40,520 nucleotides of DNA from Dehalococcoidia bacterium. GTDB lineage: Bacteria; Chloroflexota; Dehalococcoidia; Lucifugimonadales; SHYF01. Under the pieces are notes generated by a model, which searched no databases, was not told the DNA's origin, and saw only the letters and a list, made by a program, of their open reading frames with translations. How positions within the stretch are numbered: position 1 is the stretch's first letter; each line of letters starts with the position of its first letter. Shown piece by piece: positions 32,549 through 40,520 of this stretch. The position numbers were made by a program, and so were the translations under genes. The stretch spans positions 1 to 40,520 of the forward strand of contig JAUSCR010000116.1 of assembly GCA_030651175.1 (NCBI GenBank). The letters are read 5' to 3'.

Positions 32549-32664
32549 CCGCTCCGATTTCCGTATACAAAAAGGTGTTCTCAAACGAAGCAATACAAGC
32601 AAAAAGAGCAAATGGGTGCAATCAGTCCGCACCCTACCGCTTTTCGTACTGGAGGAGAAGCAAG

Positions 32665-35253
32665 ATGAAACTCGGAACACGACTGCTCAGAAGGCTGGTT
32701 TACTTCACCACACTTGCGGCGGCACTCATTCTGATGGCGGTAGCCACAAGCGCCCTGCCGTCCATACCCCTAGCCCATGCCGCAGGGAACACGTGGGCCA
32801 CCACGGGCAGCATGGCTACGAAATGGCGCAAATGGCATAAAAAGAGCTTCCTTCTTGCCGCATCTGGCCTGGGCTTGCTTCTCTTGCTCATACCTTTGTC
32901 ATTGGCCATTGCCTCGCCATCGGCTGCCCCCGGAGACCTGGACACCACCTTTGACACCGACGGCAAGTTGACCACCAACTTCGGAGGCAGCGATATCGGC
33001 TACTCCGTGGCCATCCAGGGCGACGGCAGGATCGTTGTGGCAGGATACTCCGACGTGGGAGGCACCTACGACTTCGCCCTGGCGCGGTACAACGCCAACG
33101 GCACCCTGGACACCACCTTTGACGCCGACGGCAAGTTGACCACCGACTTCGGAGGCAACGATGCTGGCTACTCCGTGGCCATCCAGGGCGACGGCAAGAT
33201 CGTGGTGGCAGGGGAGACCTACCTAGCCAGCGCCTACAACTTTGCTCTGGCGCGGTACAACACTGACGGCAGCCTGGACACGTCCTTTGACGCCGACGGT
33301 AGGGTGACCACCAACTTCGGAGGCGACGATATCGGCAAGTCGGTGGCCATCCAGAGCGACGGCAGGATCGTTGTGGCAGGATACTCCAACGTGGGAGGCA
33401 CCTACGACTTTGCCCTGGCGCGGTACAACGCCAACGGCAGCCTGGACACGTCCTTTGACGCCGACGGCAAGGTGACCACCGACTTCGGAGGCAACAATTT
33501 CGGCCAGTCGGTAGCCATTCAGAGCGACGGCAGGATCGTGGCGGCAGGGCGCTCCGGCGCGTTCCCCAACTACGACTCCGCGCTGGCGCGGTACAACGCC
33601 GACGGCAGTCTGGACGCCTCCTTTAACACCGGGGGCAAGGTGACCACCGACTTCGGAGGCAACGATTTCGGCTACTCCGTGGCCATCCAGGGCGACGGCA
33701 GGATCGTTGTGGCAGGACACTCCGACGTGGGAGGCACAGCCGACTTCGCCGTGGCGCGGTACAACGCCGACGGCACCCTGGACACCACCTTTGACGCCGA
33801 CGGCAAGGTGACCACCGACTTCGGAGGCAACAATTTCGGCCAGTCGGTAGCCATTCAGAGCAACGGGAAGATCGTGGTGGCAGGGTATTCCGGCGAGGGC
33901 GTCGCCTACGACTTCGCCGTGGCGCGGTACAACGCCGACGGCAGCCTGACCACATCCTTCGGCGCCGGTGGCAAGGTGACCACCGACTTCGGAGGCTACG
34001 ATATCGGCCAGTCGGTAGCCATTCAAAGCAACGGAAAGATCGTGGTGGCAGGGTATTCCGGCGATGGCGTCGCCTACGACTTCGCCGTGGCGCGGTACAC
34101 GGCGGAGGTGCCCCCGCCCTACGCCTACGTGGCCAACCTGGGCTCGGACAACGTCTCCGTCATTGACACATCCACCGACACGGTGATAGCAACCATCGCG
34201 GTGGGCGACCTGCCGTATGGGGTGGCAGCCAACCCTGCCGGGACACGGGTGTACGTGACCAACTTCGTTAGCAACACCGTCTCGGTGATTGACACATCCA
34301 CCAACACGGTGGTGGCAACAATTGCGGTGGGTACCGGGCCTAACGACCCGGTTGTCAGCCCGGATGGGTCGCGGCTGTACGTACCCAACGGGACGTGGAC
34401 GTCGGGCGGGGGCACTGTGTCGGTGGTGGACACGTCCAACAACACGGTGATAGCCATCGTAGGGGGCGTGGGGGACGCCCGGGACACGGCAATCACGCCG
34501 GACGGGAGCAGGGTGTACGTGTCCAATGCCTACGGCCCCCCCGCCGTGATCAACGTGATCAACACAGCCACCAACACGGTGGCTGCCACGGTGGACGTGG
34601 GCGGTAACTGGAGTGCCGGGATCGCGCTCAGCCCCAATGGGATGCGTGCCTACGTGTCGGTGTGGGATGCCGCCAACGGGTATCTGAAGGTTGTGGACAC
34701 GGACCCCTTCAGCCCTACCTACCACACAGTGGTCGCCTCGCTCCTGCTGGCCGCCGCTCCGTCCGGCAACCCGATAAGTGTGACCGTCTCGCCGGACGGG
34801 AGCCGTGTCTATGTGCACGACAACTCCAGCTACAACATCTATGTGGTCAAAACCGCCGACACCACATTGCTGACGACCCTGGGCGGCTTTATTGGAGGAA
34901 GCGGGAAGATGGCGTTCACCCCGGACGGGAAGAGGGCGTATGCGACCACGAGCCTCGGCTTGGGCGTCAAGGTGGTGGACACCGATCCCGCCAGCCCCAC
35001 CTACCACTCGGTCATCGCCACTATCCCGGTCCCGATCGGGGGCGCCGGCGGCGTCGCGATCGTGAGCTTAGGGGGTTCGCCCGTGCCACCCACGCCAACT
35101 GCGACACCCGTCCCGACGGCCACGCCTACACCCGTGCCGCCTACGCCTACTCCCACTCTCGTGCCCGGCGTCTCCACCCTCGGCATGGTGGCGCTATCAG
35201 TAATGCTGATGGCCGCCTACCTCTGGGCCAGACGCCGCCGGCTCGCGGACTAG
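32665..35253 (+). CDS. Secreted/surface protein: seven delta-60 repeats, YVTN-type beta-propeller, PT linker and IPTL-CTERM-like anchor
   Basis: GGAGG RBS; signal peptide(s); LDTTFD.DGK.TT.FGG...AIQ.DG.IVVAG repeats; YVAN/YVTN repeats; C-terminus VPGVSTLG-hydrophobic-RRRR. Confidence 0.9.
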   Translation: MKLGTRLLRRLVYFTTLAAALILMAVATSALPSIPLAHAAGNTWATTGSMATKWRKWHKKSFLLAASGLGLLLLLIPLSLAIASPSAAPGDLDTTFDTDGKLTTNFGGSDIGYSVAIQGDGRIVVAGYSDVGGTYDFALARYNANGTLDTTFDADGKLTTDFGGNDAGYSVAIQGDGKIVVAGETYLASAYNFALARYNTDGSLDTSFDADGRVTTNFGGDDIGKSVAIQSDGRIVVAGYSNVGGTYDFALARYNANGSLDTSFDADGKVTTDFGGNNFGQSVAIQSDGRIVAAGRSGAFPNYDSALARYNADGSLDASFNTGGKVTTDFGGNDFGYSVAIQGDGRIVVAGHSDVGGTADFAVARYNADGTLDTTFDADGKVTTDFGGNNFGQSVAIQSNGKIVVAGYSGEGVAYDFAVARYNADGSLTTSFGAGGKVTTDFGGYDIGQSVAIQSNGKIVVAGYSGDGVAYDFAVARYTAEVPPPYAYVANLGSDNVSVIDTSTDTVIATIAVGDLPYGVAANPAGTRVYVTNFVSNTVSVIDTSTNTVVATIAVGTGPNDPVVSPDGSRLYVPNGTWTSGGGTVSVVDTSNNTVIAIVGGVGDARDTAITPDGSRVYVSNAYGPPAVINVINTATNTVAATVDVGGNWSAGIALSPNGMRAYVSVWDAANGYLKVVDTDPFSPTYHTVVASLLLAAAPSGNPISVTVSPDGSRVYVHDNSSYNIYVVKTADTTLLTTLGGFIGGSGKMAFTPDGKRAYATTSLGLGVKVVDTDPASPTYHSVIATIPVPIGGAGGVAIVSLGGSPVPPTPTATPVPTATPTPVPPTPTPTLVPGVSTLGMVALSVMLMAAYLWARRRRLAD
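32932..34107 (+). repeat. Seven tandem 168-nt (56-aa) intragenic repeats
   Basis: CTGGACACC at 32938 and 33106 (spacing 168); units are highly similar at the DNA level. Confidence 0.92.
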
Positions 35254-35342: not shown

Positions 35343-35394
35343 TGATTCCCCCATTTTCTTTGCCCGCATGTACCCCCTATGCTATTATCTGCGG

Positions 35395-35970
35395 GTGAGA
35401 ACAGTTGCTATAACAAGGCGGCGCATCGCCACGCGGCGCATTGATGTCCAGGTGTTTCCGGCATTTCGCCGGCAGCTCACCGTGCCCTGGCTACGCCGAG
35501 TGGCGAAGGAGGCGCTGGCTGCCGGGGCCTCCTCTGCTCCTGGCGAGGACACACCCAGAGCCGCCTACCGCAGCCTGAGCCTGGTCATAGCCGATGACGC
35601 CACCATCCTGCGACTGAACCGCGACTACCGCGGCCTGAACGAAACCACCGATGTCCTGGCCTTCGCCTCGGACCACGCCGGTGAGTACGAAGGCGATGGC
35701 ACACCTCCGCCTTCCGAAAGTAACGAACAATTCATCACCGCTCCTGAAGAGGAGGGGTTTGCAGGCGAGGTCATTGTCTCCTATCCCCAGTGCCTCCGTC
35801 AGGCCGCCGAGCATGGCCATTCCGCATCCCAAGAGCTGGCACTCCTGATCACGCACGGCGTGCTGCACCTGCTGGGATATGACCATGCCACACCGGAGGA
35901 GGAGCAGGCGATGAATGCCAGGACGCAAACAGCCCTTGCGACGCTGGGTTTGGCCGAGGTGGTCCAGTGA
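35395..35970 (+). CDS. ybeY: rRNA maturation endoribonuclease YbeY
   Basis: LNRDYRG..TTDVLAF, HGVLHLLGYDH motifs. GTG 35395 lies 7 nt after TGcTATTAT, so it may be leaderless. Confidence 0.93.
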   Translation: MRTVAITRRRIATRRIDVQVFPAFRRQLTVPWLRRVAKEALAAGASSAPGEDTPRAAYRSLSLVIADDATILRLNRDYRGLNETTDVLAFASDHAGEYEGDGTPPPSESNEQFITAPEEEGFAGEVIVSYPQCLRQAAEHGHSASQELALLITHGVLHLLGYDHATPEEEQAMNARTQTALATLGLAEVVQ

Positions 35971-37676
35971 CCAACCAGGTCTACTACCGCCGGTGGAGAC
36001 CCCAGCGACTGGCTGACCTGGTGGGACAGGAGCCTGTGGCCCGCACCCTGAAACAGGCCATCCTCAGGAAGCGGATAGCCCACGCCTATCTGTTCTGCGG
36101 CCCCAGGGGCACGGGCAAGACAAGCACGGCCAGGATCATGGCGAAGGCTGTCAACTGCCTGAATCCCCAGGACGGCGAGCCATGCAACGCCTGCCGCCTT
36201 TGCCAGGCCGTCAACGAAGGTCGTGCCCTGGACCTGGTGGAGATAGACGCCGCCAGCAACCGCGGTATAGACGAGGTCAGGAGCATCCGGGAGAAGGTGA
36301 ACTACGCCCCTGCCGAAGGCGCATACAAGGTCTACGTCCTGGACGAAGCCCACATGCTCACCGATGCCGCCGCCGATGCCCTCCTGAAGACACTGGAGGA
36401 GCCGCCGGCCCACGTCATATTCATCCTGGCCACCACGGAACCCCATAAGCTTCCCGGCACCATTGTCTCCCGCTGCCAGCGGTACGACTTCCACCGCATC
36501 ACGCCGGCGGCCATGGCCGAGCGGCTGGCGCAAATATGTCAGGCGGAGGGCATCGTCGCTGACCCTGCCGCATTGCATGCCCTGGCCCGCAACGCCGCAG
36601 GAAGCCTCCGGGACGCGGAGAACCTACTGGAGCGGGCCGTCACATCCCTTGGGACTCCCCTGGGACTGGAGCAGGTGCGACTGCTCTTGGGGCTGGCCAG
36701 CGAAGAGCGCGTCCGTGCCCTGGTGGGCCACATCCTGCACGGGCGGGTCCCTCTGGCCCTGACACTGCTCAACGCCATGGCCGCCGAAGGACTGGACCTG
36801 CGCCAGCTTCACCGGCAGATGGTGGACGAGCTACGGGAGCTTCTTCTACTCAAGTCCGGCGCTCCCGAGATGGTGCCCCAGGCAGAGGAGGTGTTGCGGG
36901 AACAGTCCGCCCTCATAGCCCAGGTAACTTTGGATCGCCTGCTCCACACCATGAGACTCATGGGCCAGGTCAACTTCCGCAACGATACGCCCACATCTCT
37001 TCCCCTGGAGCTGGCGATGATAGAAGCGGCCCAGGGCGATGCCCCCAGGGAGAGCAGCGCCTCTAACGCGGCTCGTCCTGCCACTGGCGGCATGGCAGCC
37101 GCATCATCGTCTGTGGCGTCTGCGGCCCGCCGTCCCACTGCCAGTGCGCCAGCGGCACAGCAGGCGGCTCGCCGGCCCGTGCCAGCGGCTCCATCGGCCC
37201 GCTCTCAGCCTCCCGCTGCTCCGGCGCCATCCCCACTTCCACCAACGCCATCTCCGGAGGCAAGTCCGGCCAGGGCGCAAACCAGCTCTGACCCAGCGGT
37301 TCGCCTGGAACAGGAGTGGGATGGTATCATCAGGACGCTGAGTCGGCTGAGTCGCCAGAAATATCGCAGGTTTAACCCGGGTGCCCTGCTCCGCAATTGC
37401 CGCCAGCGCCGCCTGGAGGGCGATACCCTGGCCCTGGAGTTTACTCACCGCAACTACATGGAGCGCATGAAAGAGGAGATGGACAATCCGGAGAGCCGCC
37501 GGAATGTTCTGGATGCGATAATCGCCGCCCTAGGTATCACCACTCCTCTGAACCTAACGTACACAGCTCCCAACGGGCCGGATAGCACCGATAAGCCCCG
37601 TCAAAGCCCGCTGGTGCAAGCCGCTCTGGGAATGGGTGGTAAGATATTGGAAGAAGCCGAGGAGCGTCATGAATAG
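35967..37676 (+). CDS. dnaX: DNA polymerase III subunit gamma/tau
   Basis: YRRWRP, GPRGTGKTS, PCNACRLC, EIDAASN, LDEAHML, LLKTLEEPP, SRCQ motifs. Confidence 0.97.
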   Translation: MTNQVYYRRWRPQRLADLVGQEPVARTLKQAILRKRIAHAYLFCGPRGTGKTSTARIMAKAVNCLNPQDGEPCNACRLCQAVNEGRALDLVEIDAASNRGIDEVRSIREKVNYAPAEGAYKVYVLDEAHMLTDAAADALLKTLEEPPAHVIFILATTEPHKLPGTIVSRCQRYDFHRITPAAMAERLAQICQAEGIVADPAALHALARNAAGSLRDAENLLERAVTSLGTPLGLEQVRLLLGLASEERVRALVGHILHGRVPLALTLLNAMAAEGLDLRQLHRQMVDELRELLLLKSGAPEMVPQAEEVLREQSALIAQVTLDRLLHTMRLMGQVNFRNDTPTSLPLELAMIEAAQGDAPRESSASNAARPATGGMAAASSSVASAARRPTASAPAAQQAARRPVPAAPSARSQPPAAPAPSPLPPTPSPEASPARAQTSSDPAVRLEQEWDGIIRTLSRLSRQKYRRFNPGALLRNCRQRRLEGDTLALEFTHRNYMERMKEEMDNPESRRNVLDAIIAALGITTPLNLTYTAPNGPDSTDKPRQSPLVQAALGMGGKILEEAEERHE

Positions 37677-37974
37677 GAATCTGATCCGTCAAGCCCAAGA
37701 GCTACAGCAACGCCTTGCCAAGGCCCAGGAAGCCCTGGAGCATGAGACTGTGGAAGGCACCTCAGGAGGAGGCGCTGTGAAAGTTGTAGTTAACGGGAAG
37801 CAGAAGGCGCAGTCCGTGAAGATAGACCCAGAGGCGGTGGACCCCCAGGACGTGGGTATGCTGGAAGACCTGGTGCTGGCCGCAGTGAACGACGCCATGG
37901 ACAAGGCGCAGGAGCTGGCCGCAAAGCGCATGAGCGCCATCACCGGCGGCATGAAGATACCGGGGCTGATGTAA
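37669..37974 (+). CDS. ybaB: YbaB/EbfC nucleoid-associated protein
   Basis: QAQELQ, GTSGGGAVKV, EDLVLAAVNDA, TGGMKIPGL motifs. Confidence 0.95.
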   Translation: MNRNLIRQAQELQQRLAKAQEALEHETVEGTSGGGAVKVVVNGKQKAQSVKIDPEAVDPQDVGMLEDLVLAAVNDAMDKAQELAAKRMSAITGGMKIPGLM

Positions 37975-37998
37975 TTCTCATAAGGCAACCCATTCACC

Positions 37999-38871
37999 AT
38001 GACCACGCTAGCCACTCTGGAATACGCTCCGATAGAGCTTGCCCAGTCCTCCATCTCGGAAGAGCTAAGCAAGCTTAAGCCGCGGAGGTCTTCAAAGCAT
38101 GGCGCTGCGCTGTTTGAGGCGTTACAGTCGGCAGATGTTAGCATTGAGGAGCTACGTTCTCTTTTGCATGATCCTGCAACAGCCCAACTGCCTGCCCATA
38201 TCCAAGGGCTTGCATGGGCTCTGTTTGGCTACGCTCTAGACCGAGAAGGGTTACATGCAGAAGTGTTGGAGGCCTTTGAGCGGGCCACAGAGCTACGGCC
38301 TGAGTACCCAGATGCCCACTTCAACCGAGGCATGGTTCTGGGGCAAATGGGCCGCTACCAGGAGGCCATAGAGGCCTTTGAGTGGTACAGTCAGCTACGC
38401 CCCGATGACCCAGAAGCCCCATTCAATCGTGGCGTGGCTCTAGCGCAACTAGGCCGTTATCAGGAGGCGCTGGAGGCCCTGGAGCGAGTGTACCCTTTGA
38501 GGCGTACATCATCGGCCGTTGGGCAAGGAATCTACTTGGCAGCATCATACATATCCCTCATGTTCGGTCTCGCTGCCCTCAAACGCCGCTGGTTACCGGA
38601 CTATGAGAAAGCCACCGATGCCTTTATCAAGTGGCGTGCCCGTGCCCGCCGGGACAAGCAAACGGCGGCTTTCAAGCAGGCCGTAGAAGAGGTCAAAAAC
38701 GGGCTTCCAAAGGAAGATATTGAGACGTTTGAAGACTTCATGTTGGGCGTTAGGCTGATGTCCATTCGAGACCCATTCAAAGGATGGAAAGCCCTGGGGA
38801 AAGAGATTAGCAAGGACTGGCCTAAAGACGTATCTGCTGTGGAAGCAGTCCGCGAGCAGCGCCGATGGTAG
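37999..38871 (+). CDS. TPR-repeat protein with C-terminal antitoxin-like tail
   Basis: Three 34-aa TPRs (AHFNRGMVLGQMGRYQEAIEAF...); tail WKALGKEISKDWPKDVSAVEAVREQRRW; overlaps the downstream PIN gene. Confidence 0.85.
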   Translation: MTTLATLEYAPIELAQSSISEELSKLKPRRSSKHGAALFEALQSADVSIEELRSLLHDPATAQLPAHIQGLAWALFGYALDREGLHAEVLEAFERATELRPEYPDAHFNRGMVLGQMGRYQEAIEAFEWYSQLRPDDPEAPFNRGVALAQLGRYQEALEALERVYPLRRTSSAVGQGIYLAASYISLMFGLAALKRRWLPDYEKATDAFIKWRARARRDKQTAAFKQAVEEVKNGLPKEDIETFEDFMLGVRLMSIRDPFKGWKALGKEISKDWPKDVSAVEAVREQRRW

Positions 38872-39284
38872 AAGAAGTGGTGGTGGATGCTAGCGTTCTT
38901 GTAGCCTCTTTTCTTGATTATGAGGACAAGCATGTCGAAGCGTTGGAGTACATCAGGCTGTTGGAGGCTGGTGACTACCTTTTTCATCTGCCACGCTTGG
39001 CGTTGGTAGAGACACTAGCTGCCGTCAACCGTAGAGCACAGCGCAGAAGCCCCATTTACGTGTTGCGAGCCAAGGCTTACTTTGAACAGTGGCAGGCTGA
39101 GGGGAAGATTGCCTTCTACGACATGGAAGAGAGTAGAGCCAGGCGCGCCGTGGATGTCGCTCTAAGGGACCGTCTCCGTGGTGCCGACGCCGTATACGCT
39201 GCGTTGGCCGAAGAGCTTGGTCTGGAATTGAAAACCTTTGACCAGGAGCAATCCCAGCGCTTTCAAGGGCGAGTCTCGTCATGA
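38865..39284 (+). CDS. PIN-domain (VapC-like) ribonuclease toxin
   Basis: Acidic tetrad VVVDAS, LVETL, LRGADAVY, KTFD. Confidence 0.92.
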   Translation: MVEEVVVDASVLVASFLDYEDKHVEALEYIRLLEAGDYLFHLPRLALVETLAAVNRRAQRRSPIYVLRAKAYFEQWQAEGKIAFYDMEESRARRAVDVALRDRLRGADAVYAALAEELGLELKTFDQEQSQRFQGRVSS

Positions 39285-39895
39285 CCACGCACGACTTCCA
39301 TCCCACCGCTGCGCCAGTAGCCCGCCTGATAGAGGAGTTCCACAAGCTGCCGGGCATAGGCCCCAAGAGCGCCCAGCGCCTCACCTACCACCTGGTGCGC
39401 ATGCCTGCGGAGGAGGCCCGCGCCCTGGCCGAGGCTATCCTGGCGGTCAAGGAAAGGATCATACTCTGCTCTCAGTGCCAGAACCTCACGGAGGTTGACC
39501 CCTGCCCCATCTGCACCGACCCCAGCCGTGACCGCACCATCCTCTGCGTGCTGGAGGAGCCTCTGGACGTTTTGGCCCTGGAGCGTACCCGCTGCTACCA
39601 GGGGTTGTACCACGTGCTGCACGGAGCCATCTCGCCCATCAACGGCATAGGGGTCGAGGAGCTGAAGATCCGCGAGATGCTGGAGCGGCTGAGGGATGGC
39701 GTCGTGCAAGAGGTAGTGATGGCCACCAACCCCAATCTTGAAGGAGAGGCTACGGCAATGTACATCCAACGGCTGGTGTCGCCTCTGGTCAAACGGGTGA
39801 CGCGCCTGGCCAGGGGCCTGCCTGTGGGAGGCGACTTGGAGTATGCTGACCAGATGACCCTGACCCGGGCCATGCAGGGTCGCCAGGAGTTTTAG
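39281..39895 (+). CDS. recR: Recombination mediator RecR
   Basis: LPGIGPKSAQRL, C4 zinc finger, YHVLHG, NPNLEGEATA, GLPVGGDLEYAD motifs. Confidence 0.97.
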   Translation: MTTHDFHPTAAPVARLIEEFHKLPGIGPKSAQRLTYHLVRMPAEEARALAEAILAVKERIILCSQCQNLTEVDPCPICTDPSRDRTILCVLEEPLDVLALERTRCYQGLYHVLHGAISPINGIGVEELKIREMLERLRDGVVQEVVMATNPNLEGEATAMYIQRLVSPLVKRVTRLARGLPVGGDLEYADQMTLTRAMQGRQEF

Positions 39896-39896
39896 A

Positions 39897-40520
39897 GTGC
39901 CCAGGGTACGTATCTACAATACGGAGGCCATCGTTCTACGCGCCAGCCCTCTGGGCGAGGCGGACCGTCTTCTGACGCTCCTCACCCCAGGCCAGGGGAA
40001 GCTGCAAGCTACGGCGCGGGGCGTTAGAAAGCCCACCAGCAAGTTGGGCGGCCACCTGGACCTGTTGACTCGCTCCTCTCTGACTTTGGCCAAGGGGCGG
40101 AGCCTAGACACCGTTACTGGCGCCGAGGCTCAAGAGACCTTTCCATTGGTAAAAGGCAACCTGGAAAGGCTATCTAGGGCCATCTACCTGGCCGAGCTGG
40201 TGGATAGCTTCAGCCCTCTGGAAGCCCCCAGCCCGGCAGTGTACACGCTTTTTCTGGAGGGCCTGCGAGGGTTGGGGACCGAAACCGACTCGAACCTGCT
40301 TCTGCGCTACATGGAGCTTCAGCTACTGAGCCTTGCGGGTTTTCTCCCGGAGCTGCGATGGTGCGCGGAGTGTCACGGCCAACTGGCTCCTGCCCAGCAC
40401 CTCTGGAGTCCTGGGGTGGGAGGAGTGGTGTGCCCCGGCTGTAGTGCCTCTCATTCTGATGCTATCAACCTTTCCTTGAATGCCTTGAAGGTGCTGCGGT
40501 TTCTCTCCACCGCCACCGTA
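39897..40520 (+). CDS. recO: DNA repair protein RecO; 3' end runs off the window
   Basis: Not in the ORF track. Manual translation from GTG 39897 gives RIYNTEAIVLRASPLGEADRLLTLLTPGQGKLQATARGVRKPTSKLGGHL...GFLPELRWCAEC...GGVVCPGC. Confidence 0.95.
   Translation, partial: MPRVRIYNTEAIVLRASPLGEADRLLTLLTPGQGKLQATARGVRKPTSKLGGHLDLLTRSSLTLAKGRSLDTVTGAEAQETFPLVKGNLERLSRAIYLAELVDSFSPLEAPSPAVYTLFLEGLRGLGTETDSNLLLRYMELQLLSLAGFLPELRWCAECHGQLAPAQHLWSPGVGGVVCPGCSASHSDAINLSLNALKVLRFLSTATV

Follow-up and report, generated by a model that had tools for sequence, protein, structure and literature searches.

The VapBC modules are the closest described relatives of the gene pair considered here. In canonical VapBC (e.g., Caulobacter crescentus VapBC1 and Shigella flexneri VapBC; PMC5389673, in the portion available), the toxin is a PIN protein with four acidic active-site residues, and the antitoxin gene lies directly upstream of the toxin gene and overlaps it. 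The antitoxin VapB, according to the same portion of that paper, consists of: (i) an N-terminal domain of the AbrB, helix-turn-helix (HTH), ribbon-helix-helix (RHH) or PhD/YefM type, and (ii) a C-terminal part; it binds the toxin by a lateral helix and by positively charged residues placed in the PIN active site. A 40,520-nucleotide (nt) stretch of a Dehalococcoidia bacterium (assembly GCA_030651175.1, contig JAUSCR010000116.1, positions 1 to 40,520; the whole stretch is referred to as the window) carries two genes between the core genes ybaB and recR that probably work as a VapBC-like toxin-antitoxin cassette, in which a PIN toxin of 139 amino acids (aa) is preceded by a non-canonical, TPR-tailed antitoxin of 290 aa. 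The arrangement is as follows.

35368 (start), + strand: ybeY, assigned by Pfam YbeY
35967 (start), + strand: dnaX, assigned by Pfam DNA_pol3_delta2
37636 (start), + strand: ybaB, assigned by Pfam YbaB_DNA_bd; the upstream operon genes ybeY, dnaX and ybaB span 35368..37974
37999..38871, + strand: putative antitoxin gene, 290 aa, with disordered residues 1-16, a helical TPR-like solenoid (helices 12-254) and a predicted C-terminal PIN-binding module
38206..38511, + strand: three canonical 34-residue TPRs, residues 70-171; Pfam TPR_1 profile positions 1-34 fall on residues 104-137
38734..38868, + strand: predicted C-terminal toxin-binding module, residues 246-290, with helix 259-273, WPKDVS loop 274-279 and helix 280-289 (R285, R288)
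38865..38871, + strand: overlap of antitoxin stop and toxin start, 7 nt (ATGGTAG)
38865..39284, + strand: VapC-like PIN toxin gene, 139 aa, with acidic D8, E49, D108 and D126 intact
39281..39284, + strand: overlap of PIN stop and recR start, ATGA (stop TGA; recR ATG at 39281)
39281..40520, + strand: recR (start 39281) and recO (start 39897), assigned by the Pfam RecR domains, RecO_N and RecO_C; recO runs off the window end

The C-terminal end of the 290-aa protein (...LGKEISKDWPKDVSAVEAVREQRRW) is set apart from the rest of the chain, with a mean pairwise identity of 0.67 over residues 246-290 vs 0.22-0.35 across the remaining antitoxin. This tail is described by a motif of about 30 aa, W-P-x-x-V/L-S-A-V-x-A-I/V-R-x-x-R, in which W, P, S, A, V and one R show no variation across 24 aligned tails. 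Species-representative genomes, searched with an alignment of antitoxin relatives, contain 36 loci. Fifteen of these are long forms of 259-347 aa (L003 truncated by the contig end), and the other 21 (L016-L036) match over the last 25-80 residues only; 19 of these short forms are complete, with 18 in the range 87-115 aa and one at 147 aa. Short-form loci occur in Chloroflexota, Betaproteobacteria, Bathyarchaeia and others. In Pfam, the N-termini of the 19 complete short proteins match PhdYeFM in nine cases (five above the cut-off), MazE in two (both above) and ParD/RHH-like families in six (all below), with no clear match in the remaining two. By tblastn, a PIN match lies directly downstream in 17 of the 21 short-form loci (14 full length and three partial), and none is present in four. 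The preliminary description of this DNA had taken the end of the 290-aa protein for a VapB-type antitoxin tail, and its recognition is borne out by the finding that the same module ends short Phd/YefM-, MazE- and RHH-like proteins encoded upstream of PIN genes.

With a profile of the tail, 566 cluster representatives out of 1.84 billion are recovered at E <= 1e-3, the match lying at the extreme C-terminus in nearly every case, as are at least 648 proteins of at least 80 aa in a 5.8-billion protein collection. Among the best 150 of the 566 representatives, 36 are at least 180 aa in length, of which 20 match TPR_2 and two PhdYeFM; PhdYeFM is matched by 36 of the 78 short and intermediate representatives. 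The presence of the tail on Phd/YefM-, MazE- and RHH-type proteins and on the long forms thus points to one toxin-binding module mounted on three DNA-binding classes and on a TPR solenoid, the solenoid being the second major architecture that carries it. On sequence comparison, the C-terminal tail is judged a genuine PIN-antitoxin module, homologous to the toxin-binding tails of recognised antitoxins. Four Phd/YefM-type antitoxins (P0163, P0164, P0166 and P0284) carry two or three tandem tail modules, with each copy perhaps binding a PIN monomer of its own. Among Protein Data Bank (PDB) sequences, the tail profile finds chance matches to designed helical proteins only. In the regions upstream of the other PIN genes of the host genome, no open reading frame (ORF) of at least 45 aa matches the profile at E <= 10; these PINs are mostly preceded by small Phd-, AbrB-, RHH- or HTH-like ORFs, the translations being judged by eye. 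At L076:354-1144 (contig C150), the gene upstream of the host PIN that scores best against the cassette PIN profile (E 2.5e-8) encodes a 121-aa protein of HTH type by eye that ends ...AAELVREIREEER; this end loosely resembles the tail and is not matched by the tail profile.

The 139-aa protein is a Pfam PIN match (E 2.6e-12, 47.8 bits vs a cut-off of 23.6), its nearest solved chain is 2fe1_A (E 2.4e-6), and all 27 aligned PINs share its D8, E49, D108 and D126. The PIN domain and the acidic active site of VapBC toxins are both present, and the conserved residues make the enzyme look active. In a tree of PIN sequences, a branch with 97/95 support separates the 29 tail-adjacent PINs (15 TPR-paired and 14 short-antitoxin-paired) and two host-genome PINs from the other seven host-genome PINs; the 14 PINs of ybaB-recR loci group at 91/91.

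Prediction of a complex between the PIN and antitoxin residues 225-290, with alignments made for this analysis, gives an ipSAE (interaction prediction score from aligned errors) of 0.87 in three of three runs vs 0.04 for the best of three controls. The partner has a predicted local distance difference test (pLDDT) score of 83, and at least 95% of contacts are common to the runs. Of 80 solved complexes, 58 attain the pass mark, as do two of 110 mismatched pairs, counts that hold only roughly here because own alignments were used. The predicted interface joins PIN residues 8-11, 49-50, 105-108 and 125-127 to tail residues 278-288, which lie over the active site, while helix 259-273 of the antitoxin is placed on the PIN helices. 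The prediction thus places the tail on the PIN active site, in a pose that appears to match the VapB mode described in the available portion of PMC5389673; modelling of tail and PIN together, which the preliminary description had named as a check, lends support to binding. The toxin is best viewed as a VapC-family PIN, and the pair would be expected to work like VapBC.

Ahead of the tail, the 290-aa protein matches TPR_1 (E 7.7e-19, with repeats at about residues 70-171), and only TPR families are above the Pfam cut-off. Neither the last 120 aa nor the last 50 aa match any Pfam family at E <= 10, and no DNA-binding domain was found in Pfam, in keeping with the earlier statement that the protein has none. 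The AlphaFold2 (AF2) model is helical throughout (pLDDT 86, predicted template modelling score (pTM) 0.79), the last 20 residues being of lower confidence (65-74), and Foldseek on the full antitoxin model finds generic TPR solenoids only, with nothing specific to residues 171-255. The hydrophobic residues 177-196 were considered as a membrane anchor and rejected, as they model as a buried solenoid helix and are polar in the L008-L015 subgroup. An alignment covers 23 long-form relatives; TPR number differs between relatives, whose lengths run from 259 to 416 aa, and the long form carries an extra conserved stretch N-terminal to the tail (…F-M-L-x-V-R-L-x-S-I-x-D-P-F…). The suggestion, already made in the preliminary description, that the TPR domain takes the place of the usual DNA-binding domain is consistent with the Pfam, AF2 and Foldseek results and with the TPR_2 matches of 20 of the 36 long tail-bearing representatives. 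Together these results support a solenoid of about 220 residues that replaces the N-terminal DNA-binding and dimerising domain of VapB; as a plain alternative to a sensor function, the solenoid may stand in for the dimerising and stabilising role of the lost domain.

Set beside canonical VapBC, the cassette shares: (i) a PIN toxin with four acidic active-site residues, (ii) an antitoxin gene immediately 5' of the toxin gene, in the same orientation and overlapping it, which is the VapBC gene order, and (iii) an antitoxin C-terminus that is predicted to bind by a lateral helix with arginines over the active site. By contrast, the cassette antitoxin has no AbrB, RHH, Phd/YefM or HTH domain and bears the TPR solenoid instead, and the cassette lies inside a core operon with no promoter-like site of its own and with the toxin stop over the start of the next gene. 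The short tail antitoxins (L016-L036) have the same C-terminal module of about 30 residues, and their PIN partners are on the window PIN's side of the 97/95 branch; unlike the window protein, they are of 87-115 aa (one of 147 aa) and possess a DNA-binding domain. The recombination of toxin-binding and other antitoxin domains in many combinations is likewise described for NetFlax antitoxin domain swapping (PMC10440598, in part). The term 'TPR' does not occur in the available text of PMC10440598, and a TPR-tailed PIN antitoxin is thus apparently not described there, supplements aside. CapRel SJ46 (10.1101/2023.12.08.570793, in the part available) offers the related idea of a neutralising part that doubles as trigger sensor; it is a single protein with a different toxin, and the likeness is an analogy only. 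A TPR-tailed PIN antitoxin was not found described in the literature searched, where the supplements of large toxin-antitoxin surveys could list such pairs. Tripartite toxin-antitoxin-chaperone (TAC) systems have a third, adjoining gene that encodes a SecB-like chaperone. The cassette differs from TAC in that only two genes lie between ybaB and recR and the neighbours are core genes.

The cassette is embedded tightly in its operon. Across 15 related loci the antitoxin and PIN genes are at most 3 nt apart and overlap by up to 13 nt, and the ATGA overlap of the PIN stop with the ATG of the next core gene is found in all 15 (recR downstream in 14, der/engA in L007). The GC content at third codon positions (GC3) is 0.59 and 0.58 in the cassette genes vs 0.70-0.82 in dnaX, ybaB, recR and recO, and it is below that of the flanks, for both genes, in 13 of 13 related loci checked. 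The preliminary description had reported two genes of differing codon style that split ybaB from recR, the first encoding a three-TPR protein and overlapping an intact PIN gene whose stop overlaps the recR ATG; all of these elements are present in the window, and the GC3 gap extends to all 13 related loci. On the + strand, a simple consensus scan finds no sigma-70-like promoter or terminator-like site in 35388-39891, and the sole promoter-like site before the cassette is at 35360; the sigma-70 consensus may not suit this phylum, and the scan is weak evidence. The proposal that the pair borrows the expression of the core operon agrees with this lack of a promoter-like site and with the overlap of the toxin stop and the next core gene's start in 15 of 15 loci. 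Since the DNA-binding domain is lost, no own promoter-like site is seen and the ATGA overlaps recur in core operons, the loss appears to go with life inside the host operon. In an 892-aa protein encoded elsewhere in the window (32575-35253, + strand), at least six DUF5122 beta-propeller repeats (E 1.5e-81) are accompanied by others that resemble beta-propeller repeats; a linker rich in Pro and Thr and a hydrophobic stretch close the chain at its C-terminus, and the protein is thus probably located at the cell surface.

The position of the cassette is widely kept. Thirteen of the 15 long-form loci have the order ybeY-dnaX-ybaB-[long form]-[PIN]-recR-recO, at DnaX identities down to 44-47%; of the remaining two, L003 begins inside the gene and L007 lies elsewhere. 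In L007 (2656-4094), a 347-aa TPR protein and a 132-aa PIN sit within another core array, pyrB-[pair]-der/engA-plsY-gpsA, with an ATGA overlap with der, and this PIN groups with the PINs of archaeal MazE-tail pairs (93/84 support). The survey of TPR-PIN pairs and their insertion sites that the preliminary description had proposed thus yields 15 long-form loci, 13 of them at ybaB-recR and one in a different core operon. The long form is present in about 12 of 401 genomes of the same order (13 if a weaker match in G135 is counted), the 12 being chosen by eye from matches covering the C-terminal domain because TPR columns were also part of the survey profile. The site is empty in a same-genus genome (RecR 94% identical), where ybaB and recR are 68-71 nt apart. 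Among the 30 RecR-anchored loci of this taxonomic order with the best RecR matches, a non-random sample, ybaB and recR are 6-188 nt apart in 21, which agrees with the earlier remark that the two genes are normally adjacent; four hold the cassette (both genes broken in L049), three hold other inserts and two have no ybaB inside the locus.

The inserts other than the cassette are varied. L040 (2106-2444, - strand; genome G006, from another family of the order) has a 355-nt ybaB-recR gap with a 113-aa HigA-like HTH protein (HTH_3, E 2.3e-5), and no toxin-like ORF (at least 40 aa on the + strand or at least 60 aa on the - strand) was found in this gap. The 1369-nt insert of L056 (114-1482; G044) carries a 209-aa ORF without a known family and a fragment of a DNA methylase, whose match to N6_N4_Mtase (E 1.2e-5) falls narrowly short of the cut-off; the 646-nt insert of L061 (831-1476; G009) carries a 199-aa ORF, likewise without a known family. 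Conflict-type genes seem to gather at the ybaB-recR junction as a small hot spot, and the pair is an accessory cassette at this hot spot between two conserved core genes. Decay is also seen: in L049 (340-1504; G020) the antitoxin is split into 195 aa and 44 aa and the PIN into 69 aa and 73 aa, and in L010 (1825-1917) the 267-aa antitoxin is intact while the PIN is reduced to residues 104-134 before recR. In the contigs of four metagenome runs, the cassette is bypassed by one contig of X1, two of X2 and one of X3, which connect about 37974-37975 directly to 39323-39346 and so pass over 1347-1370 nt; their sides are of 32-40 letters at 85% likeness and the contigs may come from other organisms, so that they give a weak hint of relatives with empty sites. 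The host assembly, with an estimated contamination of 5.59%, also contains a second, partial recR (G000:C151:3-518) that is 96% identical and starts at the contig edge at RecR residue 33; this copy may stem from a strain variant whose presence interrupted the assembly near the cassette boundary.

Comparison of close relatives points to exchange between lineages. Between the window and L001, the closest locus by flanks, YbeY, DnaX, YbaB, RecR and RecO are 84-95% identical vs 68% for the antitoxin and 37% for the PIN (the same-genus locus L038 gives the figures of L001 and is counted once). The PIN of the more distant locus L002 is 78% identical to that of the window. DNA identity to L001 is about 0.85-0.95 in the flanks, drops to 0.35-0.62 over 38896-39255 and recovers past the recR start; the low stretch as a whole (0.35-0.6) coincides with 38836-39280. 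An approximately unbiased (AU) test rejects the window and L001 PINs as sisters (p 1.2e-15), the pair having been picked after the identity tables were seen. Synonymous divergence (dS) from L001 stays at 0.29-0.38 through the flanks and the antitoxin's first 65 codons, climbs to 0.68 in the TPR and middle parts and to 1.3 in the tail, and is saturated in the PIN; relative to L002, dS is 0.29 in the first 65 antitoxin codons vs 1.32 in ybaB and 0.76 in recR. The ratio of nonsynonymous to synonymous divergence (dN/dS) relative to L002 is 0.22 for the PIN and 0.14 for the tail, with tail, PIN and whole antitoxin all within 0.14-0.25. These values point to purifying selection on PIN and tail, and the identity pattern suggests that the toxin allele has been swapped between close relatives. 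On the simplest reading, a cassette with no mobility genes is spread and reshuffled by homologous recombination through the conserved flanking genes.

The working model for the pair is as follows. The cassette, with no promoter or operator of its own, would be transcribed by read-through of ybeY-dnaX-ybaB-recR-recO, and translation would be coupled through the overlap of the antitoxin stop with the toxin start and of the toxin stop with the recR start. Antitoxin helix 259-273 would pack on PIN helices 13-35 and 52-72, and the last helix (280-289) would lay R285 and R288 over the acidic D8, E49, D108 and D126, by which the RNase would be held off; the toxin would then act once the antitoxin is removed or pulled away. 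Release by ordinary loss or turnover of the antitoxin, in an addiction-type system where the TPR part is a stabilising or oligomerising scaffold, has somewhat less than an even chance; release by a ligand that binds the TPR groove, i.e., a sensor model, is put rather lower, as a tentative option, and some other route takes up what is left. The preliminary description, which had combined a TPR-tailed antitoxin, a PIN toxin and sensor gating in a core operon, is as a whole partly supported.

Several points weigh against the VapBC-like reading of the pair. The NCBIfam VapC subfamily is matched weakly by the PIN (E 1.2e-5, 25.6 bits vs a cut-off of 73.6). The DNA binding ascribed to VapB in the available parts of PMC5389673 and PMC3834315 finds no counterpart in a protein with TPR families only and no upstream promoter-like site, and the pair is therefore filed as a VapBC variant and not as a VapBC member. 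Homology and a single structure prediction are the basis for toxicity, neutralisation and binding, and solved VapBC complexes at large may have guided the predictor; as no solved chain with this tail is found by sequence, the predicted pose is without direct structural precedent. The after-the-fact choice of the pair in the AU test, the by-eye choice of genomes in the order survey and the sigma-70 basis of the promoter scan count in the same direction.

In a sensor-gated defence system, a trigger (e.g., a phage protein) in the TPR concave groove would detach the tail from the PIN, and the RNase so released would stop the cell or the phage. The idea draws on the fast evolution of the N-terminus and TPR region relative to L001 (dN/dS 0.63 for residues 1-65 and 0.40 for 66-170 vs 0.07-0.13 for ybaB, recR and dnaX), on the varying TPR number of relatives of 259 to 416 aa, on the HigA-like HTH protein and DNA methylase fragment held by the ybaB-recR junction elsewhere and on the precedent of an antitoxin domain as phage sensor in CapRel SJ46 (10.1101/2023.12.08.570793, in the part available). 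Variation is also concentrated where a ligand would bind: among six close homologues, mean entropy is 1.4 bits at TPR positions 2, 5, 6, 9, 12 and 13, which contact the ligand in the TPR domains of HOP (PMC1261162, as far as available), vs 0.59 at the other 28. However, the same portion of PMC1261162 presents variability at groove-lining positions as a general TPR property, and the concave-face variability thus does not single out this antitoxin. Neither protein matches a PADLOC-DB 2.0 family at E <= 0.1, and Pfam TPR-S (PF20308) is matched at E 0.0028 and 18.7 bits, under its cut-off of 27.6. No NTPase or other signalling partner is present, and the cassette context is core operons with no defence island. 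The tail profile gives seven pattern matches in viral contigs, none confirmed, and tblastn of the C-terminal 120 aa of the antitoxin finds no match in plasmids or phage records. Sensor-gated defence is regarded as rather unlikely, and gating of toxin release by ligand sensing through the TPR is at best a doubtful prospect of much the same order. In the most specific form, the TPR-tailed antitoxin would be an inhibitor gated by a ligand: a protein or peptide in the fast-evolving groove would free the VapC RNase, and the whole would act as a promoter-less abortive-infection or stress module in core operons. This form is unlikely; under it, the toxin gene, welded by ATGA to an important downstream gene (recR or der), would always be expressed and would be hard to delete cleanly.

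A domesticated regulator of replication or repair, with the PIN as a housekeeping RNase and the TPR protein as an adaptor tied to YbaB, RecR or DnaX, would account for the tight translational coupling of the pair to recR and for the retention of the ybaB-recR position in 13 of 15 long-form loci, even where DnaX identity is down to 44-47%. Such a role is very improbable given that no more than about 12 of the 401 genomes have the pair, that its GC3 is below the flanks in 13 of 13 loci, that a related pair occupies an unrelated operon in L007, that the toxin allele appears swapped between close relatives and that the cassette is decayed in L049 and a remnant in L010; the empty site in the same-genus genome is a further point, as natural empty sites argue for dispensability in replication and repair. 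That decay, with both genes broken in L049 and a PIN remnant in L010, could be taken to mean that the window pair is an inactive relic, i.e., a decaying insertion with no present function. Against this stand two intact frames in the window, a PIN that keeps all its catalytic residues and dN/dS values of 0.14-0.25 for tail, PIN and whole antitoxin relative to L002, which leave the relic the slightest chance of the explanations weighed. A functional VapBC-like cassette with a TPR-tailed antitoxin is the reading preferred.

The hosts are uncultured Chloroflexota from groundwater-type samples, and the practical reach of the finding is modest. For the family, the cassette speaks to antitoxin modularity: a PIN-binding tail can apparently be transferred to a protein-binding repeat domain from one that binds DNA, and the resulting TPR-tailed cassette would give up self-regulation and live off the host operon. 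These loci would be a small recombination hot spot for toxin-antitoxin and restriction-type genes, within a replication/repair operon, that lies outside defence-island searches, and the ligand-gated module, if true, would represent a class of operon-embedded immune genes invisible to searches based on islands. The long forms, which make up 36 of the best 150 tail representatives, provide a defined family in which to ask whether an antitoxin domain that does not bind DNA acts as a sensor.

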